Part shown: piece after piece, positions 2,172-50,857 of the stretch
How positions within the stretch are numbered: the first letter of the stretch is position 1
Layout: each line of letters starts with the position of its first letter
Assembly: GCA_030618105.1 (NCBI GenBank)
Contig: JAUXED010000001.1
Coordinates: 16,120-80,119 of the forward strand
Source of the DNA: Bacteroidota bacterium
GTDB lineage: Bacteria > Bacteroidota > Bacteroidia > Bacteroidales > VadinHA17
Length of the DNA: 64,000 bases
Reading direction: 5' to 3'
Program-made: the position numbers and the translations under genes
Notes under the pieces: generated by a model
What the model was told of the DNA's origin: nothing
Databases searched by the model: none
The model's input: the letters and a program-made list of their open reading frames with translations, nothing else

Positions 2172-2514
2172 TTGTTTTTTATATTAATCGCAATAAAGAT
2201 AATTACAGGTATTAACTATTGATTGTTAATATTATTGTTACTATTAAGTGCCTTAAATTTAGAATGTCTTCTTATTTCCCTCTCTCTTCGTTTGTTGCGC
2301 CGGACACAATGCTTGTAGTTTTATTTAAACCCGATAGTTCCGGCGCTTTTGCTATACTTACCTGTACCTCTCTGGGATAATTGCTTTTTTATACAAATAT
2401 GGCCTTATAATATTAACCATCACGCTGTTATATTCTTTTGAAGACACCGGATAATAACCACTCTCAGAGTGGTTCTACAAGAATCGTTCTACATCGCCAC
2501 CGGTATAGTTCTTT

Positions 2515-2742
2515 ATTCTTTTCCCCTTACTCCATACTTTTTTTCTCCTCTTCTCACCTTCTCACTTTCTCATCTTCTCTTCCTTCTTCCCTTCCGCCTT
2601 CCTACTACCTACTATTTACTATTTACTTCTTACTTCATCTTCTCATCTTCTCATCTTCTCATCTTCTCCTATTCTCTTCTTCGCCCCCTCGTCCCCTCGT
2701 CCCCTCGTTCTTTCGTCCCCTCGTTTCTTCTCCCCTTCTCTT
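2515..2742 (-). repeat. ~230-bp strand-pure polypyrimidine (+) / polypurine (-) block made of at least 5 concatenated 7-8 bp word repeats
   Basis: Blocks include CTCACYTT, CTTCC runs, (TACTWYY)n, (ATCTTCTC)x4 and (CCCCTCGT)n. It starts 3 bp after the stop of the 131-aa ORF on the minus strand. Confidence 0.9.
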
Positions 2743-2744
2743 GT

Positions 2745-3140
2745 TTATATCACTAAATGGATCTGGTAAAATTTAGACAATAAAAATATTATTATTATAA
2801 GATTAATTCCGGAAAAGAAATAATTAAATATAACCCTGTTGTTTTTAAAATTTCGTCGCAATAGTATCCCTATATTGGGTGCGAAAAGAGATAAAATCGT
2901 AAATACATAATTAAACTCATCGATTTTTTCTTTAATTTCAATCTCTAAAAACACCAGATAATAAAAGAATGATAATGCAATTAACAGGTAAGCCAGGTAG
3001 CTGAATTTTAGCATATATGTCGAATTCCTGCGCTTTTTATTTACTCTGAAGGGGCGTAAAAATACTGCCGCCAGCATAAAAATCATAGAAAACCCCGTAA
3101 TAACAAGTATGCGGGAAAGAATTTGTCCAAATTGATTCAT
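2745..3140 (-). CDS. Hypothetical small multi-pass membrane protein
   Basis: 131-aa ORF with about 4 hydrophobic segments. It is co-directional with, and 31 bp downstream of, the ROK kinase gene. I recognise no family. Confidence 0.4.
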   Translation of the reverse strand: MNQFGQILSRILVITGFSMIFMLAAVFLRPFRVNKKRRNSTYMLKFSYLAYLLIALSFFYYLVFLEIEIKEKIDEFNYVFTILSLFAPNIGILLRRNFKNNRVIFNYFFSGINLIIIIFLLSKFYQIHLVI

Positions 3141-5238: not shown

Positions 5239-5317
5239 AGTATTTTAAATTTTTGGGGATTTAACTTTGTTGAATAATATAATTCATATAAATAAGGTTC
5301 AAAGTTACTGGTTGTTT

Positions 5318-5396
5318 TTCCCCTTTATTCCCTCTATTCCCTCTATTCCCTTTATTCCACTATTCCACTATTCCCTGCCCGTCCGGTCAGGCGGGC
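5318..5396 (-). repeat. (ATTCCCTYT)/(ATTCCACT) tandem words plus the GC-rich 24-mer (reverse orientation)
   Basis: Direct reading. Overlaps the 3' end of the PIG-L ORF. Confidence 0.85.
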
Positions 5397-6161
5397 ATTC
5401 TTCACTATATATTCTTTTATATCGTCCTGTATTTGCGGTTCCTTTTGAAATCCCCCGCCAAGATGTTGCCAAAAAATTTCTGCATATTCAATTCCTACCA
5501 TCTTACCGTAATCCACGTTTGCCTTTTTCATCATGCCAAAAAAATTATCTATTTTATGCATATGCCTCATAAGTTCCATTTGAGATTTATGATAAGTAAG
5601 CATTTCCATTTTGGTGTCAATAACAGATGTAATATCCACAAAAAAATGAGGGGGGGGTATCTCAGAGCCCAATGGATCTGATAATGTTAAAGGGGCGGTA
5701 TGATATAGCAAGGGTGTTACTTCAAGCGGTGCTTCTTTACAAGGAACATTAGGCAATGATGATATCATTGCTGTTGTTTCAATAATATTGCAGGTGGTTC
5801 TATGGTCACTATGATAATCCATTGGCAGATGAGTAAATATAATTCCCGCCTTTACCTTCCTTATCAATTCAAGGGCTTTAATTCTTAATTCTTCAGTATC
5901 AAACAGGAAGCCATCTCTGCCATTAAAGCAATAATAGTCAGCATCAAGTACATCAGCCGCTTTACGGGCTTCGGTTTTTCTTGTTTCAATAGTTTTTTGC
6001 TCCGTTGAATTTATCCCTCCCATTCCACCTGCAGTCATAGTGGCAATAACAATCTTGTATCCTTTGTCCTTTAAAAGCTTCAGGGTTCCTGAGGCAAAGG
6101 CTTCCGTATCATCCGGATGTGCATGAAAAGCCAGCACAACTTTATTAAATTTTCGTTTCAT
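5352..6161 (-). CDS. PIG-L/LmbE-family N-acetylglucosaminyl deacetylase
   Basis: AFHAHPDDTE motif near the N-terminus and a later YHSDH motif. The last ~15 codons are read from intergenic-type repeat DNA. Confidence 0.8.
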   Translation of the reverse strand: MKRKFNKVVLAFHAHPDDTEAFASGTLKLLKDKGYKIVIATMTAGGMGGINSTEQKTIETRKTEARKAADVLDADYYCFNGRDGFLFDTEELRIKALELIRKVKAGIIFTHLPMDYHSDHRTTCNIIETTAMISSLPNVPCKEAPLEVTPLLYHTAPLTLSDPLGSEIPPPHFFVDITSVIDTKMEMLTYHKSQMELMRHMHKIDNFFGMMKKANVDYGKMVGIEYAEIFWQHLGGGFQKEPQIQDDIKEYIVKNARLTGRAGNSGIVE

Positions 6162-9404: not shown

Positions 9405-12338
9405 CTAGTGCCCGAATATCTCTTCGAGTTTTATTTCTCTGATCGTACCCAGTTCTTTCAGCATGTTCATATCCACCGCATCTCTGTCGCCCAGTACCAG
9501 GAAAGTATAATTCTTCCCCGCGATATGTTCCATAAAGAATTTATCCAACTCATCCAGGGTCATCGTTTTCATAGCTTCATATACATCTTTCCTTGTATCA
9601 TAATTCACACCACGATCGAGATTTCTAATATATGTAGAATATATATTTGTCTTGGTAATCCGTTCCGATTCTATCTTTTTCATGATTGATTCTTTTGCCA
9701 GGTTAAATTGTTTTCCGGCTTTGGGCATATCATTCATCAGGTCGAGCAGTGCATGTATTGCCATTTGTAGCTTATCTGCCTGGGTTCCCACAAATCCGTA
9801 AGTAAAATGAGACCGTTCCTGTTTAGCTGGAATATTGAAAGCGGCAAACACCGAATAAGCCAGTGCTCTTGACTCTCTGATCTCCTGAAACACTATGGAT
9901 GACAATCCTCCACCAAAATATTCATTAAATAATGTTGCCTCGGGCAATAACGACATGTTCAGTTTTTCATCCTTAGACATCATAATTATGTTTACCTGAA
10001 CCATATCATAATCTACAAAATAGACTTTGTTTTCATTGGTTTCCAGTTCAACAAATTTCACAGGGTCAGGGTAAGTTTTTGGTTCTTCAGGAACTTTATG
10101 ATGCTTTTCAATAACCTGCATAATTTTTGTTAACGGCATGCTTCCATAATAAAAAACTTTGTGTTTATACGAATACAGGTCCTTTAGTAACTCTGTCAGT
10201 TCTTCCGGATCCTGGGCTTTCAGGTTATCTTCAGAAATAAGGTGTGTATAGGGTGATTTTTCTCCGTACATACCATAATTAAACAACCCACCCCACAGGA
10301 TGGAAGATTTACTCAGTTTCCTGTCCTTTCGCTTTTTCAAAATTCCTTTAACATACTCATCGTAGGCATTTTTATCGGGCTCTACATTTGCAATAACATG
10401 TTCAAGTAATTCCAATCCGGGATCAAGGGACTTTTGCAGTCCGGTAATATATACATAAGACCGGTCGTTCCCTGCATAAACACCCATACTTATACCCAGC
10501 TTGAAAAACTCCTGTTGCAGTTCGGCAGGCGTGTATTTTTCAGTCCCCAGAAAAGGAAGATAATTTACAGCAAGCGGAAGTTTCAGATCATGATTTTTTC
10601 CCATTTCCAGAATATACTGCAAAGTAAAAAGTTCATTTGTTTTATTCTCAATATATTCAATCTTTATCCCGTTATCCAGGTGATTTTGTACAATCGCTTT
10701 TTCAAAATCCACAAATACCGGTTTTATCGGCTCGGGTTGATCTTTAATAAACTCTTTATAGAATTCCGATTGCTTATCGCGGTTAATGGGGATGGGGGTA
10801 ATTTCAGGTTTTTCCACTTTTACCAGTTCATCGTTTGCTCCTGTCCGCTTATATACTACCACATAATTATCATTGTAATGTGTTTTCGCAAAATTCATCA
10901 GTTCTTCTTTGGAAATACTTTCGAGTTCATCCAGGAATTTTACTCTGTCAACGTAAGGAATATCCTTTATAAACGCATCGATATACCCCCAACTCCGGCT
11001 GAAATTATTCTCATTCCGGCGTATCCCGGATAGTTTCATATCATTAATCACCGCCTCGATCATCCACTCTTCAAACTCGCCATTTTTTATCTTTTCAACT
11101 TCATCAAGTAAAAGGTTTTTAACTTCCTCAAGTGTCTGCCCCTGTCTTGGTATTCCATAAAACCTGTGAATACTATGATCTCTCATGAAATTCGGACTAC
11201 ATCCTGCATTTATTACTTTTTGTTGCTGAACAAGGTTAAGGTCAATCAGTCCTGCCTGTCTATTGCTCAGTATCATATCTATCAGCGTTACATATCTGTA
11301 ATCTTCACTGTTATCGGCATCAAAGCGGTAAGCGAACATCAGATTGGCGGCTGATGGCCCGGTAATTTCACAAACAACCGGGCCTATAACCGGTTCTTCT
11401 TTGGGTTGGTTAATTTCAGGTAATTCGCCTGGTTCCAGTTTTCCAAAATATTTATCCAGCACTTTAATTGTCTTTTCATAATCCAGATCGCCGGATAATG
11501 CTATAGCTATATTATTGGGAACATAAAATGTTTCGGCGAATTCATAAATATTGACCATAGAAGGATTTTTAATATGTTCGGGCAACCCTATCACATCCCT
11601 GCCATACGGATGATTCGGAAACAAGTTTTTCATCAGCATCTTGTTAGCCCGGCTGTTATCACTATCCTGATACATGTTGAATTCTTCATATACGGTTTCC
11701 AGTTCGGTATGAAAGATCCGCAGAACCATATCAGCAAAACGTTCCGATTCAAGACGTGCCCATTTTTCCAATTCGTTAGATGGAATATTATTGATATATA
11801 CAGTAAAATCGTATGAGGTACCGGCGTTAGTCCCTTTCGCACCAATGCTTGAAGCCATTTTATCATATTCGTTTGTAGCTACATATTTCGCCGCTTCGTA
11901 TGATAAGCTGTCAATTTTGTAATACAACACCTCTTTCATTTTCGGATCTTCAGTCTCCCGCCTCTTTTCAAACATATCGGATATTTCCTGCAGGAGTATT
12001 TTCTCTTTTTCCCAGTCGAGTGAGGCAATTTCATCTGTTCCTTTGAACATCATGTGTTCAAAATAGTGGGCTAACCCCGTGGTTTCGACAGGATCATATG
12101 TTGAACCGGCATGGACCCCGGTAAGGGTTTGTATCCTGGGTTCGTCCTTATTAACAGAAAGATAAACCTTTAACCCGTTTTCAAGAGTGTAAATACGGGT
12201 TTTAAGAGGATCGTTTGTAATGGTTTCATACGAATACCCATTTTCATCAATGCTTTCTTTTACTTTATATTTTTCCCCTGCGCACCGGGAAAACAAAATA
12301 AAGACAAGCAACAGAATTAAAGATTGTAGTGTTTTCAT
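9405..12338 (-). CDS. M16 (insulinase/pitrilysin) family zinc peptidase, lipoprotein-type signal
   Basis: 977 aa. Has the inverted zinc motif HYFEHMMFKGT and an N-terminal signal ending FSRC. Confidence 0.85.
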   Translation of the reverse strand: MKTLQSLILLLVFILFSRCAGEKYKVKESIDENGYSYETITNDPLKTRIYTLENGLKVYLSVNKDEPRIQTLTGVHAGSTYDPVETTGLAHYFEHMMFKGTDEIASLDWEKEKILLQEISDMFEKRRETEDPKMKEVLYYKIDSLSYEAAKYVATNEYDKMASSIGAKGTNAGTSYDFTVYINNIPSNELEKWARLESERFADMVLRIFHTELETVYEEFNMYQDSDNSRANKMLMKNLFPNHPYGRDVIGLPEHIKNPSMVNIYEFAETFYVPNNIAIALSGDLDYEKTIKVLDKYFGKLEPGELPEINQPKEEPVIGPVVCEITGPSAANLMFAYRFDADNSEDYRYVTLIDMILSNRQAGLIDLNLVQQQKVINAGCSPNFMRDHSIHRFYGIPRQGQTLEEVKNLLLDEVEKIKNGEFEEWMIEAVINDMKLSGIRRNENNFSRSWGYIDAFIKDIPYVDRVKFLDELESISKEELMNFAKTHYNDNYVVVYKRTGANDELVKVEKPEITPIPINRDKQSEFYKEFIKDQPEPIKPVFVDFEKAIVQNHLDNGIKIEYIENKTNELFTLQYILEMGKNHDLKLPLAVNYLPFLGTEKYTPAELQQEFFKLGISMGVYAGNDRSYVYITGLQKSLDPGLELLEHVIANVEPDKNAYDEYVKGILKKRKDRKLSKSSILWGGLFNYGMYGEKSPYTHLISEDNLKAQDPEELTELLKDLYSYKHKVFYYGSMPLTKIMQVIEKHHKVPEEPKTYPDPVKFVELETNENKVYFVDYDMVQVNIIMMSKDEKLNMSLLPEATLFNEYFGGGLSSIVFQEIRESRALAYSVFAAFNIPAKQERSHFTYGFVGTQADKLQMAIHALLDLMNDMPKAGKQFNLAKESIMKKIESERITKTNIYSTYIRNLDRGVNYDTRKDVYEAMKTMTLDELDKFFMEHIAGKNYTFLVLGDRDAVDMNMLKELGTIREIKLEEIFGH

Positions 12339-16621: not shown

Positions 16622-17911
16622 ATGAAAATAGGTGTTATTATTGGTAGAATTGGTGGGGTTGACGGGGTAGCACTTGAAGCAGAAAAATGGATCCAGGTAT
16701 TAAAAAAAATGGGGCATGAAATTTTTATTCTTTCCGGTCAGTTTCAGGATTGGAAAATTGATCGCACACACGACACCCTGGTTCCCGAAATGTCATTCTT
16801 TTCGCCTGAAAGTTTCTGGGGGCAAAAAAAGGCTTTTTTTCATCCCGACACCAATACTGCAGATTTGATTGAACATGTTTCACTTTACTCCAGAATTATC
16901 TCCGAAAAAATTATCAAGTGGGCAATCCATAATAAAATTGATGTTCTTATCTCCGAAAACGCTTCTGCACTTCCCTCCCATCTTGAAATGGGTATAGGAA
17001 TTAAACTGGCTGTTGAAACCCTGGGTCTTCCTACTATTACACATGATCATGATTTTGCATGGGAAAGAGGTGACAGATATATTTCTCCACATAAAGAAAT
17101 TAATAAGTTCGTTGAAAATGCATTTCCCTTGAGGCTTCCTAACACATACAATGCTGTTATTAATTTAAATGCGCAAAAAACCCTTAAAGAGAAATATAAC
17201 AGAAGTTCTATTGTTGTTCCTAATGTAATGAACTTTAATGTTCCGTTCGGAAAAATAACCTCAAAAAATAAAAATTTGCGAGCCGATCTGGGCCTTGAAG
17301 AAGATGATTTTTTGCTTTTTCAGATAACACGTATTGTTGAGAGAAAAGGAATTGAAGTTGCTATTAACCTTATTGACAAACTTGATAATAAAAAAATAAA
17401 GCTTGTTATTACCGGAAATTATAAAGATGATGAGGGTAGTATATACTATGATATGCTTGTCAACCTGATCCATGAATTGAAAATAAGCAGACAAATTATT
17501 TTTGCTTCTCATATTATACACAATAAGGGTCTTTCAGGAGACGGAAGTGATACACGCTATTCACTATCCGATGCTTACGCAAATGCATCTGCTTGTACAT
17601 ATTTCAGTACTTATGAGGGTTTTGGTAATGCTTTTATTGAAGCTGTTCTGGCAAAACGTCCTATTTTTGTTAATAATTACAAGCCCGTATACTGGCCTGA
17701 TATCGGCAGTAAGGGATTTAAAGCAGTAATGCTTGAAGATAATGTACTTACCGATGATGCTGTTGAACAAATGAGAGAGGTAATATTTAATAAAACACTA
17801 AACCGCGAAATTGCTGAATTTAATTATACTCTCGGAAAAAAGCACTTTTCTTACGAGACACTTGAACAAAAATTGGAGGAGTTGCTTGAAGAAGTAAGTA
17901 GTAAAAAGTAA
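16622..17911 (+). CDS. GT4-like retaining glycosyltransferase (GT-B fold)
   Basis: 429 aa with an E-x7-E motif (YEGFGNAFIEA). The N-terminal GGVDGVALEAEKW and HDHDFAWERG motifs are shared with the N-terminal half of the 1405-aa protein. Confidence 0.8.
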   Translation: MKIGVIIGRIGGVDGVALEAEKWIQVLKKMGHEIFILSGQFQDWKIDRTHDTLVPEMSFFSPESFWGQKKAFFHPDTNTADLIEHVSLYSRIISEKIIKWAIHNKIDVLISENASALPSHLEMGIGIKLAVETLGLPTITHDHDFAWERGDRYISPHKEINKFVENAFPLRLPNTYNAVINLNAQKTLKEKYNRSSIVVPNVMNFNVPFGKITSKNKNLRADLGLEEDDFLLFQITRIVERKGIEVAINLIDKLDNKKIKLVITGNYKDDEGSIYYDMLVNLIHELKISRQIIFASHIIHNKGLSGDGSDTRYSLSDAYANASACTYFSTYEGFGNAFIEAVLAKRPIFVNNYKPVYWPDIGSKGFKAVMLEDNVLTDDAVEQMREVIFNKTLNREIAEFNYTLGKKHFSYETLEQKLEELLEEVSSKK

Positions 17912-17973
17912 GTAGTAGGAAGGAAGAGGTGATGAGGTGATGAGGTGATGAGGTGATGAGGTGATGAGGTGAT
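17888..17973 (+). repeat. (GTARRNA)n heptamers followed by (GGTGATGA)x6 octamers, overlapping the GT gene stop
   Basis: Direct reading. Lies between the convergent GT and hemW genes. Confidence 0.9.
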
Positions 17974-17992
17974 TTGCCTTCGGCTTTCCGCT

Positions 17993-19117
17993 TTACATCA
18001 TTAATTCAGAGATGATATTATCCGCTATTAATTTTCCCTGGTCTGTAAGAATAAGGTTATCTTTTTTTTTCTTAATCATTCCATAATCAATAAATCTTTT
18101 CGAAAGTCCTGTGCAATAATCCATTGCTTCTTTACTGTAGTTTTCTTCAAGGAATTTAAGATCAATACCCCATATTGTCCTCAATGATGTTAATATATAT
18201 TCATTATATTTTTTCCTGTTATCCAGGTATTCTTTTTCAAATGGAACTTTGTTTTTGCTAATAGAATCCATATACATTTTATTGTCTGCTACATTCCACC
18301 GGCGTATTTTCCCGTTATATGAGTGAGCAGATGGTCCTAATCCAAGATATTTTACCTGTTTCCAGTAATTTGTGTTATGTTTTGAAAAAAAATTATCCAG
18401 GCAAAAATTTGAAATTTCATAATGAATAAATTCGTTTTCTCCTGCTTTTTTTATCAGAACCCTGAATTGTTCAATACTTATATCTTCTTCCGGTATTTTT
18501 ATACGTCCTTCTTTTATATACCGGAAAAAAACCGTATCAGGTTCTATTGTAAGATGGTAAGCCGAAATGTGGTTGATCTCCATTTGAAAAGCAATATCAA
18601 TATTGTTCTCCCATGTTTCCATGCTCATTCCCGGAATTCCGTATATCAGATCTACGTTTATATTTTCAAAGCCTGCATCTTTACTATCGTACACAGCTTT
18701 TATTCCTGTTTTACTTTGGTGCCTTCTGTTCAATAATCTAAGATCCCGGTCAGAGAATGATTGCAATCCTATACTTAACCTGTTTATTCCTGTTTTTACT
18801 AATTTATTCAAATACTGTTTTGTCAGGTCATCAGGATTTGCTTCGTAAGTAATTTCAGCATCTTTTGATATTTTGAAATACTTGTAAAGACCCTCAAATA
18901 TTATCATTATTTCCTCGTAATTAAGAACCGATGGGGTTCCTCCACCAAAATAGATTGTTTCAACCTGTTCCGACTCAAGAAATCCGTTTTCCAGCTCCAT
19001 CTCTTTCACCAGTGCTTTTATCATTCTACCTTTATCTTTCAGGTTTAATGACTTGTGAAAATCACAATAATGGCAAAGTTTCTTACAAAAGGGAATATGT
19101 ATGTAAATACCAGCCAT
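17993..19117 (-). CDS. hemW: Radical SAM HemN-like protein (heme chaperone HemW / coproporphyrinogen-III oxidase family)
   Basis: HIPFCKKLCHYCDF (CxxxCxxC), GGGTPS, 374 aa. Confidence 0.85.
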   Translation of the reverse strand: MAGIYIHIPFCKKLCHYCDFHKSLNLKDKGRMIKALVKEMELENGFLESEQVETIYFGGGTPSVLNYEEIMIIFEGLYKYFKISKDAEITYEANPDDLTKQYLNKLVKTGINRLSIGLQSFSDRDLRLLNRRHQSKTGIKAVYDSKDAGFENINVDLIYGIPGMSMETWENNIDIAFQMEINHISAYHLTIEPDTVFFRYIKEGRIKIPEEDISIEQFRVLIKKAGENEFIHYEISNFCLDNFFSKHNTNYWKQVKYLGLGPSAHSYNGKIRRWNVADNKMYMDSISKNKVPFEKEYLDNRKKYNEYILTSLRTIWGIDLKFLEENYSKEAMDYCTGLSKRFIDYGMIKKKKDNLILTDQGKLIADNIISELMM

Positions 19118-19140
19118 GTGTTTTAATGCTATTTATGTTC

Positions 19141-19188
19141 TATTATTCCATTATTCCCCTTTATCCCCTTTATCCCCTTTATCCCCTC
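19141..19188 (-). repeat. (CCCCTTTAT)x3 9-bp repeat encoding the GDKGDKGDKGE tail of the 1405-aa ORF
   Basis: Direct reading. Confidence 0.85.
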
Positions 19189-22100
19189 TACTCCGTTCTT
19201 CCAGTACAGCCAACACTGCATTCGATACAGCTCTTGGTTCCGGCGACATTGAATAAACATTTTTTTCATACTGACTATTATACGGAGAAATATTCAGCGG
19301 TATTCCATCAACTACAATTGTACTACTTCCCCCGGGGTCAAACCCCATTGCTTTTTCTATTCCCTGGTTAATTAAGATTTCAGCCATATCAAGGTGTGTA
19401 GCCCCAACTGATTCCCTTATTCTTCCGTTAACCGCAAGAATATACATATTTCCATTCTTATCCAATCCGGCAGCAATTTTTGGTCCTCTCATATCTGTAT
19501 AGTCTATTCTTGCTGCTTGTGTCTTTATTGAGTTTTCCGTTTTCCATCCTTCTTTTTGCATATCTAAACATGGCTTGTTTCTTTCTACCAACATAGGTCC
19601 GGCTTCGATACCATGTATATATTTTTCCAGTCCTTTTATTTTTATGCTTAATTTTCCTTCTTTTTCTTTCATTACTTCGGGAACTGATCCTGCCGGAAAC
19701 GAAAGCGTAATTCCCACCGGTATTATTTCAACCCTTTCTCCTTTTTTAGTGCTGATAATCTCTTTAATTGTATTTCCGGCAATTCTTATAATAGTACGAC
19801 CATTTCCTATAATATGTTTTTTAACAAAATTCAGATCATAATAACATGCTTTATCACCAGGTACGGATAAATTATATTGCTTTTCTGTAAAGTCGATTTT
19901 CTCTTCACCTTTAATAATTTCTATTCCCTTTGAACAGTTTACTCTTTGCATATAAAGTGTTCCGTCTTGTTTAACCAGAAATGCGGCTTTATTGAATAGT
20001 GGAAGACTTTTCACTTTCCCTTTTTCAATTAAAAGACCCATTGGCGAGCCAATGTAGGATTCCGGCAAACCAAGTTTTCCAACTAGTTCAGGATTTAAAA
20101 TATATCCTCCATTCCATCCTGCCTGCACTTTTTTCTTTTCTCTTTTTTCAAATTCTTTAATAAAATCTGTCACTTTTTTCGGTTGACTTTTAGTAAGAAC
20201 CGTAATAAACGACCATTTCTTTCCCTGTAAATTTGTTGCGATTCTTACCATCACACCATTCCATGGATGTCCGTCATTATAAACACCTGTTAGATATGAA
20301 TAATTAACCGGCTGTAAGACATCCTGTTTTTTACTTTTTAATTTATTCAAAACAAACTTCACCGGCGATCCGTTTTGTTCTGCATCATTTTTCAGTTCCT
20401 TAAGCACTTTTTCCTTTCCTTTTTCCTTGCATAAATTCTTAAACAAGTTTCCTTTTAGCTCTTCGCTAAAATCTTTTGCTGTTTGAATTGGTGTTGGATA
20501 TGCAAGAGTGGGGCGCATTCCCGCAGGCACAAATTGTATATACCCTGTTCCTTTTGGTATACCCATAATGTTTGCAGTTGTATCCTCTCTAACTCTTCCT
20601 ATATGAAATCGGTCAATATCAAGAATATCAGTCATTACTATCGCGTTCTTACGATTAGAAATTAAAAACCCCTTACCATTTTTTATTTGCCCAAGAATTT
20701 TTAATGCCTTTTCTCCCAACTGGGAGAAATGAATACCCACACATAATTGTTTTGTTCTTACAATCTGTAAAATTTTCTTTTCGTAAAGCAGTTTTAGTTC
20801 TCTGTCACCACTATTTTTAATATATTTTATTATCTCGTTAGCGTCAGCCCATTGTCTTATTGATTTTTCCTGTGCAAAAAGAAAAACCGGCTCAATTTCT
20901 GCTTCACGTCCATTGAGTTTTTCTTTTGTAAGTTCTTCTTCAATTTTTAAGTTAAGCCTTGATCTTACAGATTGGAGCGCAAAGAATTCCAGTTCATACA
21001 TGATATGTTTTCCGGAAAAAATTCCAATAGGTACATTTGCATGCATTCTATCCAGAAGCTCTTCCCTGTCGTCTATTGCAAGATGTTTGCTTGATGTAAG
21101 CTGTGAAAGAGCCAGGTTCCAGTCGGTAAAAAAATGAGAGCCTGTATCAACGCGGTAGGTTGTTGTTGGCCGTATAATTTCATGGTAAATAAGATTTATC
21201 AGTCCTGTTATTTCCTGAATTGTAAAATCCCTGTATGGATAATGGTATTTGTTCCTGTGCCGGTATGACATTGAGTGGTCATGTCTTATTTTTATTTCAC
21301 CTTCGCGATAGCGAAAAATATTATCAACCGTGTTATAAAATTTTACTATTTTTTCTTCTGCAATAAATACGTGGTCCGGATCATCATTAACCAGGTCTTT
21401 TGCAAACATAAAGGCCATACCCCTAACTTCCTGTTCCTCAACTCTGAAATAGCTGGGATCAATAAGTGATTTCAGTTTAAGCATAAATAACAATCTTCCA
21501 TATCCCGGTAAATAATGCCTTTTTTCTGTTTTAATAATTTCTTCTAATCCTTCATTATTATTATTTATCAAATCCCGGTATTTATTGAAGCTGTCTTTTG
21601 CCTTTTCCATGCACAGGACATTTGTTTCCAACTGATTATATAACCTGAAGTTAATCTCTCTAATATTTTGGTAAAGAGTTTCCAGACTGTATCTTTTATC
21701 AACCGCATTTATGTTCTGTTCGTATTCATCACTAAAATTGTGTGGAAAAAAGACTCTTTCAAAAATGTTATTAACATGTTCCTTATTAATATTCTTCCCG
21801 TCAAATTCGATTACTTTTAGTCTGTCTTCCTCGGGCAGATTCTCTCCTATTACATCTGAATAAACATTTTCGGGATAATACCTGCTGCAAAATATTGGAA
21901 CACCACATGCTGCTGCCTCAATAATAGGTAAACCCCTCCCCTCGGTTTCGCTTGGGAGAAGCACAAGTGATGCAACATTATATAATTCCGGTATCCCCAC
22001 GGGGTTTTTAAACCGTTTCAGAAATTTTTCTTTATCCAGTTCACTAAATAAAAATGCCAGGTAAATTTTCTCCTTCAGGTCTTTATCAATTGATCTTAGT

Positions 22101-23368: not shown

Positions 23369-23430
23369 AAAGCTATATCTCCATTTTATAACAGTGAAAT
23401 ATGGCAGGCATTTTACATTCTTCTAAAAAG

Positions 23431-23527
23431 TTACTGGGTGCTGGGTGCTGGTTACTGGTTACTGGCCTGATCTTTAACCTTGAATTCTTAATTCTTCCTT
23501 ACTCAACTACTCACCCTACTTAACTAC
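23431..23527. repeat. (CTGGGTG/CTGGTTA)n heptamers (23431-23465) and the YACTCAAC-type word block (23494-23527) in a divergent intergenic region
   Basis: Same words as 48600-48643 (reverse complement) and 30879-30923 / 50261-50349. Confidence 0.85.
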
Positions 23528-24508: not shown

Positions 24509-24551
24509 TTTAAATAATTATTAATTTTTAAAATTTATTTTTCCTGCTTTA

Positions 24552-24733
24552 TTTACAATTTATGTATACCCATAAAGCATAATAAGTATACCGGTTTTGC
24601 GATCCGCCAGCTGGCGGAGAAGCAATCTTCCCTGGCTTTTCGTAAAGCTTATAATAGTCTATTTATTTGACATTCTGGTTGTTTTTGGTAGTTTACTTCG
24701 TCGTTTCACTCCTCGCAAAATCTTTTTTCAACC
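24552..24733 (-). mobile_element. ~182-bp MITE-like palindromic element, full copy 1 (inverted relative to copy 2)
   Basis: Its reverse complement aligns by eye end-to-end with 36897-37078. Shared features are the GATTTTGCGA / TCGCAAAAYC arms, GAAGCAATCT / AGATTGCTTC inner arms and the TCCGCCAGCTGGCGGA palindrome. Confidence 0.75.
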
Positions 24734-25119
24734 AATAAAATCCATTATTAATAATATGTTCATTATTTGTTAAATTAGATAAATAAAAATTTATTAAATA
24801 TTTTTCTTTATCATTTATTAATAAAAAAAATGTTTTATCAAAAAAAAGTTATTTACTAAATAACGCCATAAAATGAACAAAAATTTTAAATTTTTTATAA
24901 AATATTTATTAAATTATAACTTATTATTTTCCTTTCAACAGTTGTTAATTTTTATAATAATACATTGAATCACAACCTGTTTTTTTTGTAATATTGTTGA
25001 AATTTTGTTCCTAACTTTTTAAAAACATAATATACAACAATTATGTATATTATTTTTTAACACAATTAACAATACATTATTAATAACATAAATAATAATT
25101 AAATATATAATATATTAAT

Positions 25120-26122: not shown

Positions 26123-26444
26123 GTTGGCAGTCGGCAATCAACAGTCAGCAAGAAAATAAAAACTCAAATAACAAGCACCAAATAACAAATAAAAAACAAG
26201 ATTCAAAAAAAGAAAATTGGAAGAAAAAAAAATAAAATATTGGTAAATTCTATATTGAATTTTTATTTTTTTGTTAATTGGATATTATTTACTCACAAAA
26301 TAATTAATTTTAAAGGTGTTCCCCGAAAAAACGGGGCAAGCTGTGAGATCACTTCGTTAAGTTGTTTTTTGAGATTTGTTATTTATTTATAAATTGACAC
26401 TAAGTAGTTCAGTCTTCAGATTGCTGACTGAAGGCTGCCGACTT
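26123..26444. repeat. Long imperfect inverted repeat with AGTCGGC/AGTCAGC words at both ends in opposite orientation, and an internal CCCCGAAAAAACGGGG hairpin
   Basis: 26123-26150 compared with the reverse complement of 26410-26444. The A-rich inner arms (AAATAACAAAT...) are also mirrored. Hairpin at 26321-26336. Confidence 0.45.
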
Positions 26445-26534
26445 ATAAACGCAAAGCATAATGAGATTAGTAATTTTAGCAATAAAAAAATTAAGACACT
26501 GCATAGTTACAGAGTTTTATTAAGGTTATAAATA

Positions 26535-29311: not shown

Positions 29312-29482
29312 ATGAAAGAATATTTTAAACGTTCTGGTCTTATTTTTATTATTGCAGGGGTAGTTACACTTGCAATATCCGAATTTGGAAAGGTTGAAAG
29401 TAATAAAATGTTGATTATCAGTGGTGGACTAATAGTATTTGGTTTAATTGTGTATGTAATTTTAAATAACATACTTGATTAA
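29312..29482 (+). CDS. Possible 56-aa two-TM micro-protein
   Basis: ATG...TAA ORF (MKEYFKRSGLIFIIAGVVTLAISEF...LIVFGLIVYVILNNILD) with two clean hydrophobic helices. It is more plausible than the antisense 69-aa track ORF. Confidence 0.3.
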   Translation: MKEYFKRSGLIFIIAGVVTLAISEFGKVESNKMLIISGGLIVFGLIVYVILNNILD

Positions 29483-30354: not shown

Positions 30355-30801
30355 ATGAAAGAAACTGTAAATGTATTACTTAAGAAAAAAATGGTTTTTG
30401 AAGTTGAAGTAAACGGGCATAAAATTATTATAGATGCAGACAAGAAGGCTGGAGGAGGGAATAAAGGACCCAGGCCAAAACCATTAATGCTTGCTGCCCT
30501 TGGCGGATGTACAGCCATGGATGTAGTTTCTATTTTAAGGAAAATGAGAGTAAATTTCGTAGCAGTTAATGTAAAAGTTGATGGTGAATTGACGGAGGAA
30601 CACCCAAGGCATTTCTATAAAATGCATGTAACATACGAATTTACAGGGAAGGACCTGCCTTTGGAGAAGCTGGAAAAAGCCGTAAATCTTTCACAAGACA
30701 GATATTGTGGCGTAAGTTATAGTTACGCGAAAGCAATGGAAATAACACACGAAATAAAAATAAAAGAGTCGGCAGTCGGCAATCGGCAGTCGGCAATTTA
30801 A
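30355..30801 (+). CDS. OsmC/Ohr-family peroxiredoxin-like protein
   Basis: 148 aa. GPRPKPLMLAALGGCT and DRYCGV motifs. The last ~11 codons are read from the AGTCGGC heptamer repeat. Confidence 0.85.
   Translation: MKETVNVLLKKKMVFEVEVNGHKIIIDADKKAGGGNKGPRPKPLMLAALGGCTAMDVVSILRKMRVNFVAVNVKVDGELTEEHPRHFYKMHVTYEFTGKDLPLEKLEKAVNLSQDRYCGVSYSYAKAMEITHEIKIKESAVGNRQSAI
30767..30797 (+). repeat. (AGTCGGC)x4 heptamer repeat forming the 3' end of the OsmC ORF
   Basis: Direct reading. Confidence 0.9.
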
Positions 30802-30821: not shown

Positions 30822-30923
30822 CCTCATCACCTCATCACCTCATCACCTCATCACCTCATTGGTCTTTTATTCTGCATCTTCCTTACTCAACTACTTAACT
30901 ACTCAACTATTAAACCACTCAAC
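30822..30923 (-). repeat. (TCATCACC)x4-5 and the YACTCAAC word block downstream of pheS (purine/G+T-rich on the pheS sense strand)
   Basis: Direct reading. Confidence 0.9.
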
Positions 30924-30927
30924 TTTT

Positions 30928-34975: not shown

Positions 34976-35021
34976 GCCCGCCCGCCTGACCGGACGGGCA
35001 GGGACGGGCCGACTGCCGACT
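34976..35021 (+). repeat. GC-rich 24-mer copy 3 followed by a GCCGACT word, downstream of dut
   Basis: 34980-35003 is identical to 1187-1210. Confidence 0.85.
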
Positions 35022-35067
35022 TAAAAACGAAATAATAATGAAGTTTATCATTTTAATGTTACAATAT

Positions 35068-36896: not shown

Positions 36897-37078
36897 GTTT
36901 GAAAAAGGATTTTGCGAGGAGCGAAGCGACGAAGCAATCTCACAAGAACAACTGGGATGCCAAAGCAATAGACTGTCTTGAACTTTACGAAAAGTCTTGA
37001 AAGATTGCTTCTCCGCCAGCTGGCGGATCGCAAAATCCGTATACTTTTTATGGTTTAAAGATATACATAAATTGTAAA
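36897..37078 (+). mobile_element. ~182-bp MITE-like palindromic element, full copy 2, ending 7 bp before the DUF4292 gene ATG
   Basis: See 24552-24733. It sits inside the conserved TPR-DUF4292 gene pair. Confidence 0.75.
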
Positions 37079-37084
37079 CGAAAC

Positions 37085-37903
37085 ATGAAATATAGGAAGA
37101 TAAAAGCATTAATTATTTGTATATGTTTAATATATACAGGATTGCCGGGATGTAAAACTACAAAAAGCAGTGTTGGTTTATTTATTGAAAGCAATGAAGA
37201 AAGTGTAGAAAGGGTTAGGGAAAGTCTTATTGAAAACAAGATAGAGGTTAAAAATATTTGGGTAAAAAAATATAATTGTGAGATAAGAGAAAATTGGAAA
37301 AGAAAAGATTTTTATGGGGATATAAAAATTGTAAAAGGCGAAAAAATATTGATAACTGTTAAAAGCGGATTAGGAATAGAAACTGCAAGAGTATTGCTAA
37401 CAAAAGATTCTGTGAAAATTGTTGATAGAATGAATAAGGAGGTTTTTTGTGGAGGGTATGAGGAAATGAAAAGATATTTTGGTTTGATAGATTGTTATAA
37501 AAAGGCAGAAGATTTAATGATAAGCAATAATTCGATTGTTATAGAAGAGATGGGAAATAAATACGGAAATAAATATGAAATAAAAAAGGGAGAGAAGAAG
37601 GATGAAATAATTATTAGTGAAAAAGGGGTCAAAACGACTGGAAATAAGCAATTTACTATAAGAGTGGATAATTACAATATAGTTGAATACAGCGAAGAAA
37701 ATGGAAAAAATGAAATGCTGAAAGTTAATTATTTGAATTGGATTGATTTTGGAAAAATAAAATTTCCGGAAGAGTTAAAAATTGAAATACATAAAGGCGG
37801 TGAGAAAAGGATATCAATATTAAAGTATGAGAGAATTGAAATTGATGGAAAGATGAATACTAAATTCAGAATACCTGATGGATATAAAGTAATAAAATTA
37901 TGA
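37085..37903 (+). CDS. DUF4292-like (LolB-fold) lipoprotein
   Basis: Lipobox LPGC. Sits in the conserved Bacteroidota position between the TPR protein and the M23 peptidase. Overlaps the next gene by 4 nt (ATGA). Confidence 0.6.
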   Translation: MKYRKIKALIICICLIYTGLPGCKTTKSSVGLFIESNEESVERVRESLIENKIEVKNIWVKKYNCEIRENWKRKDFYGDIKIVKGEKILITVKSGLGIETARVLLTKDSVKIVDRMNKEVFCGGYEEMKRYFGLIDCYKKAEDLMISNNSIVIEEMGNKYGNKYEIKKGEKKDEIIISEKGVKTTGNKQFTIRVDNYNIVEYSEENGKNEMLKVNYLNWIDFGKIKFPEELKIEIHKGGEKRISILKYERIEIDGKMNTKFRIPDGYKVIKL

Positions 37904-39108: not shown

Positions 39109-39174
39109 AATGGTAAATTGTAACCCGAAGAGGAAAAAGAAAGTATAAAGAAAAGAGAGAAAACATTATGTAAA

Positions 39175-39571: not shown

Positions 39572-39593
39572 AACTCACGACTCACGACTCAAG
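39572..39593 (+). repeat. (ACTCACG)x3 heptamer repeat after the anti-sigma kinase gene
   Basis: Direct reading. Confidence 0.8.
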
Positions 39594-42193: not shown

Positions 42194-42230
42194 AGAAGTA
42201 AGAAGTAAGAAGTAAGTAGTATGTAGTAAG
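42191..42230 (+). repeat. (GTAAGAA/GTAAGTA)n heptamers starting at the mnmG stop codon
   Basis: Direct reading. Confidence 0.9.
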
Positions 42231-42269
42231 ATGTCACGTGAGAAGGCGATAAGGCAAAGGCTTTCTATT

Positions 42270-44235: not shown

Positions 44236-44361
44236 TCAAACTGAGTTCAAAGTTCAAAGTTAACCCGCAACTCGTAACCCGAAACTCTTTTACACTGCAA
44301 CACAATTACTAAACTCTTTTATTCTTAAACTTATAAACCTCTCAACTTATAAACTATTCAA

Positions 44362-44382
44362 CACCTCATCACCTCATCACCC
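44362..44382. repeat. (TCATCACC) word pair upstream of uvrC
   Basis: CACCTCATCACCTCATCACCC. Confidence 0.8.
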
Positions 44383-46358: not shown

Positions 46359-46470
46359 AAGGAGGAAAGGAAGTGAAGAGAATTAAAAATTAGAAATTTG
46401 AAATTAAAAAGTGAAGAGGAGGAAATGTGGAGATGGGGAAATGAGGAAATGAGGAGATGAGGAAATAGGA
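46359..46470 (+). repeat. Purine-rich degenerate word block (GGAAATGAGG / GTGAAGAG) downstream of uvrC
   Basis: Almost C-free on the + strand for ~110 bp. Confidence 0.75.
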
Positions 46471-48578: not shown

Positions 48579-48599
48579 ACCCGCATAAGTGAAAACCTA

Positions 48600-48643
48600 C
48601 CCAGCACCCAGCACCCAGTACCCAGTACCCAGTACCCAGTACC
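48600..48643 (-). repeat. (CCAGCAC)x2(CCAGTAC)x4 heptamers between the convergent ATPase and polyprenyl synthase genes
   Basis: Direct reading. Reverse complement of the words at 23431-23465. Confidence 0.9.
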
Positions 48644-49622: not shown

Positions 49623-49806
49623 ACAAATGTTTATGATATCATACCTGCCGGCATAAACCTATTTATAGATAAAACAAAAGGCAAAAATAACAGGTGTCAA
49701 AAGGTGAATTAATTTTATTTGCTCAAAGATAGGAAAATATATATTAGTCGGTTTTAGGTCAGTAATTTATTGTAACGGAAGTTTAAAAATGCATAATAAA
49801 TATACT

Positions 49807-49860
49807 GATTTTGCGATCCGCCGGTTAGCGGAGAAGCAATCTTTCATGACTTTTCGTAAA
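49807..49860 (-). mobile_element. Partial (right-arm) copy of the 182-bp element, with variant palindrome TCCGCCGGTTAGCGGA
   Basis: GATTTTGCGATCCGCC..GCGGAGAAGCAATCTTTCATGACTTTTCGTAAA matches 24595-24647. The left flank GCATAATAAATATAC is also shared. Confidence 0.65.
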
Positions 49861-49962: not shown

Positions 49963-50259
49963 ATGAAAATAAAAGATTTATCCTCTGAACAGCTTGAAAG
50001 AGCAGCTAATATGTTGAAAGCAATTGCCCATCCGATGAGAATAGCAATTCTAAATTATCTGGATGACGGAAAGAAACTTAATGTTACAGAGATTCATGAA
50101 CTGCTTAATATTGAACAATCTACAACTTCTCATCATCTGGGTATTTTGAAAGATAAAGGAGTTTTATCATCCCGGCGACAAGGCAAATACACCTATTATT
50201 ACCTGAAGTACGATAATATTGCGAATATTATAGAATGCGTAAATAAATGTTCCGGGTGA
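49963..50259 (+). CDS. ArsR/SmtB-family metalloregulatory transcription factor
   Basis: 98 aa. LKAIAHPMRIAILNYL...SHHL winged-helix pattern. Confidence 0.85.
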   Translation: MKIKDLSSEQLERAANMLKAIAHPMRIAILNYLDDGKKLNVTEIHELLNIEQSTTSHHLGILKDKGVLSSRRQGKYTYYYLKYDNIANIIECVNKCSG

Positions 50260-50350: not shown

Positions 50351-50406
50351 TAAAAGAAGTTATATATTGGAAAGAGTAAATATTTCAGGAATATAGGGAA
50401 AAAATT

Positions 50407-50856: not shown

Positions 50857-50857
50857 A

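Follow-up and report, generated by a model that had tools for sequence, protein, structure and literature searches.

Tandem arrays of heptamers and octamers have been known from bacteria since 1990 and have no accepted function. The STRR heptamers of heterocystous cyanobacteria, reportedly described by Mazel et al. in 1990, are said to form dispersed tandem families in non-coding DNA; to our knowledge, a rule of position and strand is not part of that original description. The G-rich heptamers GGGAATC and GGGGA(C/T)T of Xanthomonas and Nostoc are arranged head-to-tail, are strongly intergenic and are scarce between divergent genes (Rehm et al. 2015, PMC4692102). Their G-rich strand is the coding strand and they lie within 50 bp past a stop codon, overlaps included; they vary strongly in length and sequence between close relatives, and their neighbour genes belong to no particular functional class (PMC4692102). 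TAACTGA repeats, which are also intergenic, have a patchy cross-phylum distribution that includes Beggiatoaceae, Cyanobacteria and some Bacteroidetes (MacGregor 2015, PMC4679880). Spacers of Bacteroidetes combine them with further heptamers, contigs break inside them and they are missing from spacers of close relatives; the sets of Beggiatoa lie mostly just upstream of start codons in the forward orientation (PMC4679880).

Here we analyse a 64-kb stretch of DNA (hereafter the window) from a low-GC Bacteroidota genome, whose short arrays belong to this known class of intergenic heptamer and octamer repeats (STRR, Rehm 2015, MacGregor 2015). A literature search found no paper containing their exact words. 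Like the heptamers of Rehm et al., the arrays are intergenic, carry the G-rich strand as sense within 50 bp past a stop, are fewer in divergent spacers and are variable. They differ in that most words are unable to form three-tetrad G-quadruplexes (GGTGATGA, AAGAAGT and AGTTGAGT are without GGG), in the number of words, the presence of octamers and the composite blocks, and in their host. As with TAACTGA repeats, words are mixed within a spacer, contigs break and relatives show gaps, but the robust association here is with stop codons, unlike that of the Beggiatoa sets, and no TAACTGA was seen in the window. As in STRR families, few words are reused at many loci, although the phylum and the words are others. 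The pattern of stop-abutting arrays with a G-rich sense strand is real, widespread and partly described already. What goes beyond Rehm et al. (2015) is that the rule is independent of the word, is short-range and is accompanied by the rewriting of protein C-termini.

Results

Short arrays of many unrelated words occupy intergenic DNA

Arrays with a period of 6 to 10 nt and at least three copies were sought in the window with TRF. The resulting 22 rows cover 854 of 8,789 intergenic nucleotides (9.7%) and only 62 of 55,053 coding nucleotides (0.11%), whereas dinucleotide shuffles (n = 30) gave a mean of 0.03 rows. Units with periods of 7, 8 and 9 nt are joined head-to-tail without spacers, in 2.5 to 9.8 copies with 71 to 100% matches. 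About 15 unrelated words, octamers as well as heptamers, are found within this one window and are joined into composite blocks, and some recur: GGTGATGA at five sites, AAGAAGT at four, AGTTGAGT at three to four and AGTCGGC at four to five. As a fraction of base pairs, array density is 0.248 in convergent spacers, 0.104 in tandem spacers and 0.075 in divergent spacers. Logan contigs terminate inside arrays.

The arrays fall outside several familiar repeat classes. Their spacer-free periods of 7 to 9 nt differ from the repeats of 23 to 47 nt with unique spacers that define CRISPR. Similarities to REP/BIME elements include a dispersed distribution at gene 3′ ends, where REP elements share a transcript with the preceding gene and differ from strain to strain, and the pairing of some arrays in other phyla with a downstream complementary array into long hairpins. 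In contrast to REP/BIME units, which are imperfect palindromes of 20 to 40 nt, they are direct tandem repeats of 7 to 9 nt, and no palindromic partner occurs in the window: no complementary array was found near the GGTGATGA, AGTTGAGT, AGTCGGC/GGCAGTC or CTGGGTA arrays. No GGG runs were scored in the focal GAGGTGAT, AAGAAGT, AGTTGAGT, AGTCGGC and CTGGGTA arrays, which therefore do not fit a G-quadruplex pattern (at least four runs of at least three G with short loops); by sequence only, this pattern is present in the arrays of AATAGAGGG (5321–5376), TAAAGGGGA (19155–19187) and GGGGACGA (2681–2724). A scan of the whole window against Rfam 15 gave no match at the gathering score, scans of the window for tRNA and tmRNA found nothing, and E. 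coli-type DnaA boxes are not enriched in the AT-rich spacer at 24509–25119.

Arrays abut or overlap the stop codons of upstream genes

An earlier note on this DNA had listed 12 genes with arrays at or near their stop codons, with the C-poor strand as the sense strand. With gene identities verified by Pfam, all 12 arrays are present and oriented as described. At the focal site, an AAGAAGT/AAGTAGT-type heptamer array (17889–17927, plus strand) spans the stop codon of a glycosyltransferase (GT) gene (TAA, 17909–17911) and encodes its last seven residues, EEVSSKK. It is followed by six perfect copies of GAGGTGAT (17926–17973, plus), which are lineage-specific and do not occur in relatives of 95%, 89% and 86% HemW identity. 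A homologous module, (GAGGTGAT)x9.8 preceded by (AAGAAGT)x4.3 (53779–53897, plus), starts 2 nt past the polA stop (53774–53776), and the same type of composite is present at the mnmG end, where (AAGAAGT)x5.6 (42193–42231, plus) begins at the final base of the stop codon (−1). Arrays of AAGGCAG, AAGAAG and AAGAAGT (50856–50912, plus) also start at −1 of the queD stop, and two AGTTGAGT arrays (50266–50338, plus) start 6 nt from the stop of an ArsR-family gene. Within the last 35 nt of the OsmC gene, (AGTCGGC)x4.1 (30767–30795, plus) encodes the tail ESAVGNRQSAI.

The minus strand carries the remaining members of this group. A four-array composite of GTGAGAAG, AGTAGTA, GAAGATGA and GGGGACGA (2550–2736) begins about 8 nt past the stop of a 131-aa ORF (2745). 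The (AATAGAGGG)x6.4 array (5321–5376) overlaps the PIG-L stop (5352) and encodes the PIG-L tail, and (TAAAGGGGA)x3.7 (19155–19187) overlaps, in frame, the stop of a 1405-aa gene whose C-terminal RGDKGDKGDKGE it encodes. Three further arrays lie a few nucleotides past their stops: (AGTTGAGT)x5.1 (30884–30924) at +3 from pheS, which is common to the loci L242, L115 and L116; (CTGGGTA)x6.6 (48598–48643) at +4 from polyprenyl synthase, whose word is free of stops on both strands; and (GGCAGTC)x5.6 (53955–53993) at +5 from the S41 protease. Not flush with a stop are (GGTGATGA)x4.8, also written (GAGGTGAT)x4.8, on the pheS sense strand (30822–30859, minus), and (GAGGAAAT)x6.6 (46419–46470, plus) in the convergent spacer between uvrC and an HTH gene, 180 nt from the uvrC stop.

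The exceptions given in the same note are real. Arrays of TAAACTTA and TCATCACC (44326–44381, minus), with a C-rich sense strand, lie 30 to 56 nt upstream of the uvrC start; (CCTCATCA)x4.4 (50920–50954, minus) lies 41 nt upstream of the polA start; and GTTACTG/GGTGCTG and TACTCAAC arrays (23430–23527) occupy a divergent spacer. One more was absent from that list, (ACTCACG)x2.7 (39573–39591, minus), which has a C-rich sense strand 2 nt past the stop of an HATPase_c_2 gene.

It had also been proposed that the sense words close all three reading frames. This is arithmetically correct for GGTGATGA, AAGAAGT and AGTTGAGT, but AGTCGGC, CTGGGTA and AAGGCAG contain no stops at all, and closure is seen in only 18 of 34 arrays, compared with 18.8 expected from composition-matched shuffled units. 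Stop codons are thus not enriched beyond composition in these arrays, and three-frame closure follows incidentally from composition and period. The accompanying statement that the stop-free, C-rich antisense strands give rise to spurious ORFs holds both in the window (2438–2776, 5267–5572, 18931–19371 and 50167–50499) and outside it.

Orientation follows the upstream gene within about 30 nt of the stop codon

Among window arrays no more than 60 nt from the nearest stop, the C-poor strand is sense in 13 cases and antisense in 3 (p = 0.02, with arrays of the same spacer not being independent). Five arrays are associated with genes that oppose the local GC skew, and all five follow the gene rather than the skew; a replication-strand cause of orientation was rejected on these grounds.

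The rule was then assessed across many phyla in more than 230 loci, using (GGTGATGA)n together with a control, (GGATGTGA)n, whose word was arbitrary and chosen beforehand, with stops assigned from a long sense ORF. Over the stop or up to 30 nt past it, the ratio of sense to antisense orientation among the matches listed is 50:3 for (GGTGATGA)n and 60:4 for (GGATGTGA)n; at 31 to 100 nt, the matches listed give 12:11 and 7:8, respectively. Other arrays in those loci behave likewise, with 46:14 within 10 nt falling to 5:8 at 61 to 100 nt among the matches listed. The tie between array orientation and the strand and 3′ end of the upstream gene is replicated outside the window, with a ratio far from 1:1 within 30 nt and random orientation beyond. 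The control (GGATGTGA)x3 occurs in at least 120 contigs and is as widespread as GGTGATGA.

Several features of these loci bear on how the rule arises. When arrays are extended, 31 of 113 (GGTGATGA)n and 35 of 122 (GGATGTGA)n matches listed contain the stop codon of a sense ORF that is 150 aa or longer, and distances from stop to array keep register with the 8-nt unit. Words without stops on either strand, when flush, have G>C on the sense strand in a ratio of 20:6 among the matches listed. Cyanobacterial loci show flush sense orientation as well (5:0 up to 30 nt from the stop and 8:2 up to 100 nt, among the matches listed). Period 7 is in excess (134) over periods 6 (10) and 9 (36) among the matches listed. 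These loci, 1.66 Mb in all, contain only 12 tRNA genes, none of which lies near an array. Viral contigs were uninformative as a frequency yardstick, with 1 versus 0 matches, the count for (GGTGATGA)x3 being 1 in 2.9 million. Culturable carriers include Hymenobacter spp., among them H. aerophilus DSM 13606 and H. saemangeumensis JCM 17923, as well as Myroides sp. WP-1, Cloacibacterium normanense and Stutzerimonas stutzeri JZ20.

Composition alone is a plausible cause of orientation in the window lineage, where sense-strand GC skew is +0.22 in coding sequences and, even with arrays masked, +0.24 to +0.31 over the 20 nt that follow stops (G/C of about 1.9). This cause fails elsewhere, because G/C past stops is only 1.04 to 1.33 outside the lineage, too weak to yield a ratio of 17:1.

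Arrays turn over among close relatives and rewrite C-termini

The same sites were compared in relatives at 97%, 95%, 94%, 90%, 89% and 86% identity. Copy number and word differ between close relatives at orthologous sites, and some sites are arrayless. Where the window carries 4.8 units at 30822–30859, L242 (97% PheS identity) has a single degenerate unit within identical flanks. The focal site holds (AGTAAAT)x5 in L244 and a degenerate AAGTAGT block in L248; in L245 to L247, which include a relative of 89% identity, it is an 11-nt spacer with no array. Overall, arrays are missing from the same gene ends in relatives whose spacers measure 11 to 25 nt. The flush arrays past pheS and in the OsmC tail are common to relatives, whereas the non-flush GGTGATGA array is not. 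Purine-rich 3′ flanks are kept across relatives although the words differ, a persistence that could reflect selection on 3′-UTR composition.

Arrays also reach into coding sequence. OsmC orthologues share ...THEIKI and then diverge into tails encoded by AGTCGGC or AGTGCCTAA arrays, with a deletion reaching deeper in L242. In the GT protein, EEVSSKK stands in place of IATGKK, 21 nt of coding sequence having been swapped for array sequence with no change in length, and the 1405-aa protein ends in the array-encoded GDKGDKGDK. Arrays advance to the upstream ORF and intrude on its dispensable 3′ end; they arise and change size in place, with turnover within a few percent of protein divergence. The comparison shows that they are dispensable, and that they expand in place, erode and rewrite protein C-termini.

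Discussion

The observation made in the earlier note is confirmed, and its interpretation is supported in part. The three functions that it offered were a translational backstop, the capture of Rho by antisense transcripts and a protein-binding platform; to these can be added elements acting in the sense transcript and modules copied between loci. A backstop against readthrough or frameshift at gene ends would account for the all-frame stops of most flush words and for a short-range association with the stop codon itself, and would be more valuable at 62% GC and above, where chance stops are rare and from where many matches come. It receives no specific support from closure frequencies, however, and we regard it as very doubtful: stop-free flush words (AGTCGGC, CTGGGTA and AAGGCAG in the window, others elsewhere) share the orientation, arrays far exceed the three units needed, L245 to L247 have no array at the focal gene end, and a 2019 survey of bacteria found no selection for additional stops (Ho & Hurst, PMC6764699). 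The orientation of stop-free words is in line with a G-rich, C-poor RNA that acts in the mRNA directly past the stop, where it could block 3′-to-5′ exonucleases, resist Rho or supply the 5′ arm of a hairpin. That the bias is limited to the first 30 to 60 nt past stops, as expected of a transcribed 3′ flank, is consistent with such an element, as is the persistence of purine-rich flanks through word changes in relatives. In other phyla, complementary arrays accompany 22 to 40% of flush arrays, predicting long hairpins, and always lie downstream (14:0 and 30:0), both among the matches listed; where one follows, a repeat-built hairpin could serve as a REP-like stabiliser or terminator. Of the six convergent spacers of at least 60 nt in the window, five hold arrays but lack a canonical terminator, and the other has a terminator but no array. 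A terminator-like site is present at only 2 of 17 array-bearing 3′ ends in the window, and none lies in 17912–17992. Even so, a role in the sense 3′-UTR seems unlikely. No window array has a complementary partner, the fold of the focal 3′ UTR is not significant (z = −1.4), and the same gene ends are arrayless in relatives with 11 to 25-nt spacers. Nor do arrays and terminator-like hairpins exclude one another overall (Fisher p = 0.69, a test of low power), so that arrays as substitutes for intrinsic terminators were set aside.

The antisense strand offers a different reading, in which transcripts that run into a gene from the 3′ direction would be rut-like, load Rho and terminate, thereby insulating convergent or neighbouring genes. 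Like rut sites, the antisense strand is C-rich, G-free and unstructured; in the focal antisense RNA, C makes up about 50% and folding is negligible (−7 kcal/mol over 121 nt, z = +0.2). Array density is also highest in convergent spacers (24.8% of bp, compared with 10.4% in tandem and 7.5% in divergent spacers), and canonical intrinsic terminators are scarce (7 of 45 3′ ends in the window). The proposal is weakened by range and distribution: rut sites are non-periodic and should work anywhere in a 3′ flank, whereas these tandem repeats obey the rule only within 30 nt of stops, with orientations near 1:1 at 31 to 100 nt. We know of no Rho in Cyanobacteria, which nonetheless share the flush sense orientation. 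The amount of array per 3′ end is similar in convergent and tandem spacers by arithmetic on spacer counts, antisense RNA of coding sequences is already C>G in the window (skew 0.22), and relatives dispense with arrays, which together leave Rho recruitment improbable. We give about as little credence to purine-rich composites, headed by TGA or TAA, being copied by template switching, gene conversion or a MITE-like mechanism and landing preferentially at stops. Copying is suggested by a 30 to 70-nt composite module with the same words at unrelated ends (GT, polA, mnmG, queD and non-orthologous L114 sites), by the common TGAAGAAGTAAGAAGTAAGTAGTA...GGAAGnAAGAGGTGATGAGG of the GT, polA and mnmG ends, where the module starts at the stop, and by a 24-nt block, GAAGAAGTAAGAAGTAGGGAGTAA, common to queD|polA in the window and PST|dut in L114. 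Moreover, a dispersed element of about 350 nt, whose presence varies between relatives, has AGTCGGC arrays as its inverted ends, and the GT replacement is of equal length. Yet no transposase, target-site duplication or defined ends were found for the purine-rich modules, in-place growth from a resident proto-unit is directly visible (30822–30859 compared with L242), convergence can produce low-complexity similarity, and viral contigs hold a single match to (GGTGATGA)x3. Most improbable of all, in our estimation, is a periodic platform to which the ribosome or an RNA-binding protein of the S1, cold-shock or RRM type would bind. A single OB-fold or cold-shock domain does have a footprint that matches the periods of 7 to 8 nt, and GAGGTGAT, each unit of which also carries AUG-AGG-UGA, has 8-nt complementarity to the anti-Shine-Dalgarno sequence, GAGGUGAU being the exact complement of what we take to be the 16S 3′ end, AUCACCUC. 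But Shine-Dalgarno pairing is little used by Bacteroidota, and the control octamer is equally widespread and behaves identically, so GGTGATGA is not special and a decoy reading of GAGGTGAT was dropped. Orthologous sites bear different words or none, which makes a sequence-specific binder unlikely, as do some 15 unrelated words in 64 kb. Binders of the OB-fold or cold-shock type have been proposed for heptamer repeats (MacGregor 2015, PMC4679880).

We tentatively prefer an explanation in which arrays are born by slippage and retained at ORF ends by a selective filter, with no dedicated function needed. An array beside a gene end would persist only if its sense strand stops translation quickly or adds a harmless tail, which would probably be hydrophilic and built of purine codons. 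In an array that provides the stop and final codons, a seed would be preserved by purifying selection on the gene, and from it the array could expand again, a putative stop-capture ratchet. Elsewhere in a spacer, arrays of either orientation would form and then be lost. In the window lineage, the strong sense-strand G>C and purine bias that extends about 60 nt past stops would reinforce the bias in orientation. Some observations fit this filter poorly. Stop capture offers no explanation for the stop-free flush words, with their 20:6 preference among the matches listed, and the same words and module at unrelated gene ends argue for copying between loci or selection for particular words. In addition, antisense arrays just past stops are at background density, where a pure filter with spacer erosion predicts a pile-up, and the filter gives no account of the excess of period 7 over periods 6 and 9.

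A broader proposal, which we consider rather unlikely, is that flush purine- or G-rich arrays are a general cross-phylum 3′-end module, built convergently from many words and exerting its effect in the sense transcript no more than about 30 nt from the stop. Its possible roles include a 3′ exonuclease barrier, Rho shielding and a context for termination or ribosome recycling, as well as the 5′ arm of a hairpin where a complementary array follows. If this were true, ordinary proteins would have their C-terminal tails continually rewritten as a side effect.

Whether slippage with a filter or a functional module is the better account, the rule itself can be put to the test: arrays of any word, in many phyla, are flush with stop codons and have their G-rich strand as sense, with an effect that fades beyond about 30 nt. 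Culturable carriers make orientation-swap experiments feasible. In practical terms, arrays cause spurious antisense ORFs and broken short-read assemblies. Finally, the stops that arrays supply and the tails that they rewrite, as in OsmC, the glycosyltransferase and the 1405-aa enzyme, matter for gene calling and for the evolution of protein ends.

Arrays at gene ends in the window

A degenerate AAGAAGT/AAGTAGT heptamer array (17889–17927) spans the TAA stop codon (17909–17911) of a group-1 glycosyltransferase (GT) gene (16622–17911, Pfam), and alongside it lie six copies of GAGGTGAT, all perfect (17926–17973). Nineteen bases separate the GAGGTGAT array from the end, at 17993, of a convergent hemW-like radical-SAM gene. 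The host genome is a low-GC (~34%) Bacteroidota MAG, and the PheS encoded in the window shares 94% identity with its counterpart in GCA_015222065.1 (‘Bacteroidetes bacterium C2.bin.40’).

When arrays in the window were called with TRF (period 6 to 10, at least three copies), they covered 854 of 8,789 nt of intergenic DNA and 62 of 55,053 nt of coding DNA, and the 22 rows observed compare with a mean of 0.03 in 30 dinucleotide-preserving shuffles. Their share of spacer DNA was 24.8% between convergent genes, 10.4% between tandem genes and 7.5% between divergent genes. The earlier note had placed arrays at the stop codons of 12 genes, in the orientation that makes the C-poor strand sense for the gene. 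Indeed, at all 12 ends the array overlaps the stop or begins no more than 8 nt away, and Pfam confirmed the gene names. For arrays with strong G/C asymmetry that lie no more than 60 nt from the nearest stop, the C-poor strand is the sense strand in 13 cases and the opposite holds in 3 (p = 0.02, where arrays in the same spacer are not independent). The exceptions already listed are real, and a further one is (ACTCACG)x2.7 at 39573–39591, whose sense strand is C-rich and which has a stop 2 nt before it.

Genes in the window diverge from a GC-skew minimum near 24–26 kb, and thus gene strand and skew direction are confounded there; all five arrays on counter-skew genes (17889, 17926, 30822, 30884 and 48598) follow the gene. 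Purine loading of the coding strands is strong in this lineage (G 20.2%, C 12.9%, GC skew +0.22), and in 2-kb windows at 36–42 kb the skew reaches up to +0.47, with A exceeding T as well. In the first 20 nt after stops, the skew is +0.31 (+0.24 after array masking) and reaches zero by ~80–100 nt, and ahead of starts in the window there is none. Canonical hairpin-plus-T-run terminators are present at only ~7 of the window's 45 3′ ends.

The orientation rule across phyla

Searched for (GGTGATGA)x3, 185,579 species genomes yielded at least 112 stretches, and the matches listed include Bacteroidota, Cyanobacteria, Acidobacteriota, Gemmatimonadota, Planctomycetota, Cloacimonadota, Proteobacteria and others. 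GAGGUGAU exactly complements the 16S 3′ end, but the proposal that GGTGATGA is special through this complementarity was rejected, because a composition-matched control octamer, picked in advance and scanned in metagenomes as (GGATGTGA)x3, likewise gave at least 120 stretches. The control thus becomes an independent replicate of the rule.

The arrays among the matches listed were extended through degenerate units, giving 113 (GGTGATGA)n and 122 (GGATGTGA)n, and were compared with sense ORFs of at least 150 aa. The sense-ORF stop lies within the array in 31/113 and 35/122 cases, respectively, and 0–30 nt upstream of it in a further 19/113 and 25/122; antisense ORF stops within 30 nt number 3 and 4. 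For stops 31–100 nt away, the sense-to-antisense counts are 12:11 and 7:8. The orientation bias, examined against stop distance at matched loci from many phyla, is therefore far from 1:1 within 30 nt and random at 31–100 nt, and so is limited to the immediate surroundings of the stop. Distances from stop to array are in register with the 8-nt unit.

Non-target arrays at the matched loci give 46:14 at no more than 10 nt from the stop, falling to 5:8 at 61–100 nt, and have periods of 7 (134 arrays), 8 (52), 9 (36), 10 (17) and 6 (10). Words that are stop-free on both strands carry more G than C on the sense strand when the array lies over or directly beside the stop (20:6). In loci with less than 50% GC, for which ORF calls are reliable, the count is 13:0 in favor of sense within 30 nt, and cyanobacterial loci give 5:0. 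With arrays masked, G/C after stops at these loci is merely 1.04–1.33, and thus background composition cannot yield ~17:1. Wherever a complementary-word array accompanies a G-rich one, it follows downstream without exception (14:0 and 30:0), and long hairpins formed by the two occur in 22–40% of cases flush with the stop; no window array has a complementary partner array.

Stop codons within the arrays

The claim that arrays close all three reading frames is arithmetically right for stop-bearing words, but 18 of 34 arrays, counted on the C-poor strand, close all frames against 18.8 expected for arrays made from shuffled versions of their own units. Any C-poor word of period 7 or 8 would thus yield such stops, which are a by-product of composition and period. 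AGTCGGC, CTGGGTA and AAGGCAG abut stops yet carry no stop codon. The long spurious antisense ORFs are explained, as had been suggested, by the stop-free C-rich strands.

Turnover and encroachment on coding sequence

Syntenic loci from relatives reveal rapid array turnover. After the GT gene, the window carries the AAGTAGT-type array plus (GAGGTGAT)x6, L244 (HemW 95%) carries (AGTAAAT)x5, and L248 (HemW 86%) carries a degenerate AAGTAGT block. In L245–L247 (HemW 89%) the spacer is 11 nt and the array is absent, indicating that it is dispensable for the GT and hemW genes. The pheS/OsmC spacer of L242 (PheS 97%) matches that of the window except for a single degenerate unit, GGGTAATG, in place of (GAGGTGAT)x4.8, a difference that is in-place expansion or collapse. 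In this spacer, a AGTTGAGT array flush after pheS is common to 4/6 genomes, and a non-flush GGTGATGA array occurs in 1/6. The GT, polA and mnmG ends have in common a composite module, TGAAGAAGTAAGAAGTAAGTAGTA...GGAAGnAAGAGGTGATGAGG, starting at the stop, which reflects some inter-locus copying, or convergence, as well.

OsmC orthologues have a common ...THEIKI followed by an array-encoded tail, derived from AGTCGGC arrays in the window and L242 and from AGTGCCTAA arrays in L114–L116; the L242 protein has lost eight more codons. The tail of the GT protein, EEVSSKK, comes from array sequence and replaces I(D/A)I(A/T)TGKK, and the 1405-aa protein has a C-terminal RGDKGDKGDKGE encoded by (GGGGATAAA)n, with different tails in relatives.

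In L115, the 90%-identity relative, the OsmC gene (11214–11653) adjoins an array-bearing spacer and is split by in-frame stops into 68-aa and 78-aa calls, probably through pseudogene formation or sequencing error. In L245 (5541–6000, related to window 19118–19150), an inserted 114-aa gene of the 23S_rRNA_IVP family separates the 1397-aa gene from hemW, and identical array-containing sequence, AAAAGTTTGTAAAGTTGAAAGTT, on both flanks suggests that an array was the site of insertion or recombination. Unlike array-bearing spacers, which turn over, the 66-nt spacer that separates the M23 peptidase gene from the HATPase_c_2 gene (39109–39174), which is purine-rich and non-repetitive, is 82–91% conserved in L114, L115 and L116. 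Same-species short-read contigs from Logan with the GT and hemW genes (L001, L240, L241) end within (GGTGATGA)n and GGGGATAAA arrays. Arrays thus break de Bruijn assemblies and are expected to leave array-rich spacers under-represented in metagenome assemblies.

Dispersed elements and other intergenic features

A dispersed element of ~330–400 nt occurs at 26123–26452, again at 35006–35029, and in the L116 PPI|PST and L114 dut|TPR spacers. Inverted heptamer arrays mark its boundaries, (AGTCGGC)n ... (GCCGACT)n, and TTATAAACGCAAAGCATAATGAGATT follows. The nadA/MORN-gene spacer contains it in the window (416 nt) and lacks it in L114 (78 nt) and L115 (123 nt), and relatives have it inserted at other sites. 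The element looks MITE-like, and may explain why AGTCGGC always reads in one direction after genes and in the opposite direction before them. A second repeat of ~200 nt (24536–24731, 36899–37094 inverted, and 49792–49860; copies 82–90% identical) contains the hairpin TTTTGCGATCCGCCAGCTGGCGGAGAAGCAATCTT, to which motif GATTTTGCGAGGAnCGAAGnGACGAAGCAATCT at 34424 and 36908 is related; the repeat has no Rfam match.

The 611-nt spacer at 24509–25119 (26% GC) sits at the cumulative GC-skew minimum, where genes diverge, with mnmG 15 kb off. Unlike other spacers, ~400 nt of it are 83–88% conserved in relatives. This spacer may be oriC; DnaA boxes of the E. coli-type consensus are not enriched in it. 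Between ruvB and a Crp-family gene, a conserved 56-aa ORF (29312–29482, + strand) with hydrophobic, membrane-like sequence receives a gene call in every relative; it is shorter than the usual ORF length cut-off.

Discussion

The arrays belong to the class of repeats that comprises the STRRs of cyanobacteria, the GGGNATC heptamers of Xanthomonas and Nostoc, and the TAACTGA arrays of Beggiatoaceae, Cyanobacteria and Bacteroidetes, an already known class. GGGNATC heptamers obey the same positional rule as the window arrays: their G-rich strand is the coding strand, up to 50 bp past the stop and overlaps included, and they are rare between divergent genes and variable among close relatives (Rehm et al. 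2015, PMC4692102). TAACTGA is mixed with other heptamers in Bacteroidetes spacers (MacGregor 2015, PMC4679880), and surveys find some genomes with an over-representation of 6–11-bp tandem repeats in intergenic sequence (PMC4060949).

Although the earlier note described the arrays correctly, none of its three functional ideas is supported. A three-frame translational backstop gains nothing from stop content beyond composition, and a survey in bacteria did not find selection for extra stops (PMC6764699). Recruitment of Rho to rut-like antisense transcripts fits an antisense RNA that is G-free and unfolded, but the bias is short-range and also present at cyanobacterial loci, which weakens this idea. 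Word turnover sits poorly with a sequence-specific binding platform.

As slippage-type repeats, the arrays grow in place and turn over fast; they are dispensable, encroach on ORF 3′ ends and often provide the stop. We tentatively favor the reading that arrays at gene ends need no dedicated function. An array would persist against a gene end only if its sense strand quickly ended translation or encoded a harmless purine-codon tail. Once an array had captured the stop, selection on the gene would keep a seed that could re-expand, and arrays elsewhere would take either orientation and be short-lived. This reading leaves unexplained the G-over-C preference of stop-free words, the repeated use of particular words and modules, the excess of heptamers and the absent pile-up of antisense arrays just past stops. 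Given these gaps, a role for the G-rich 3′ UTR of the sense transcript as an exonuclease barrier, Rho shield or hairpin arm stays a serious rival, if an unlikely one.

What is added here to the known class is that the rule is word-independent, cross-phylum and short-range, that stop content comes with composition and period, and that arrays rewrite protein C termini.
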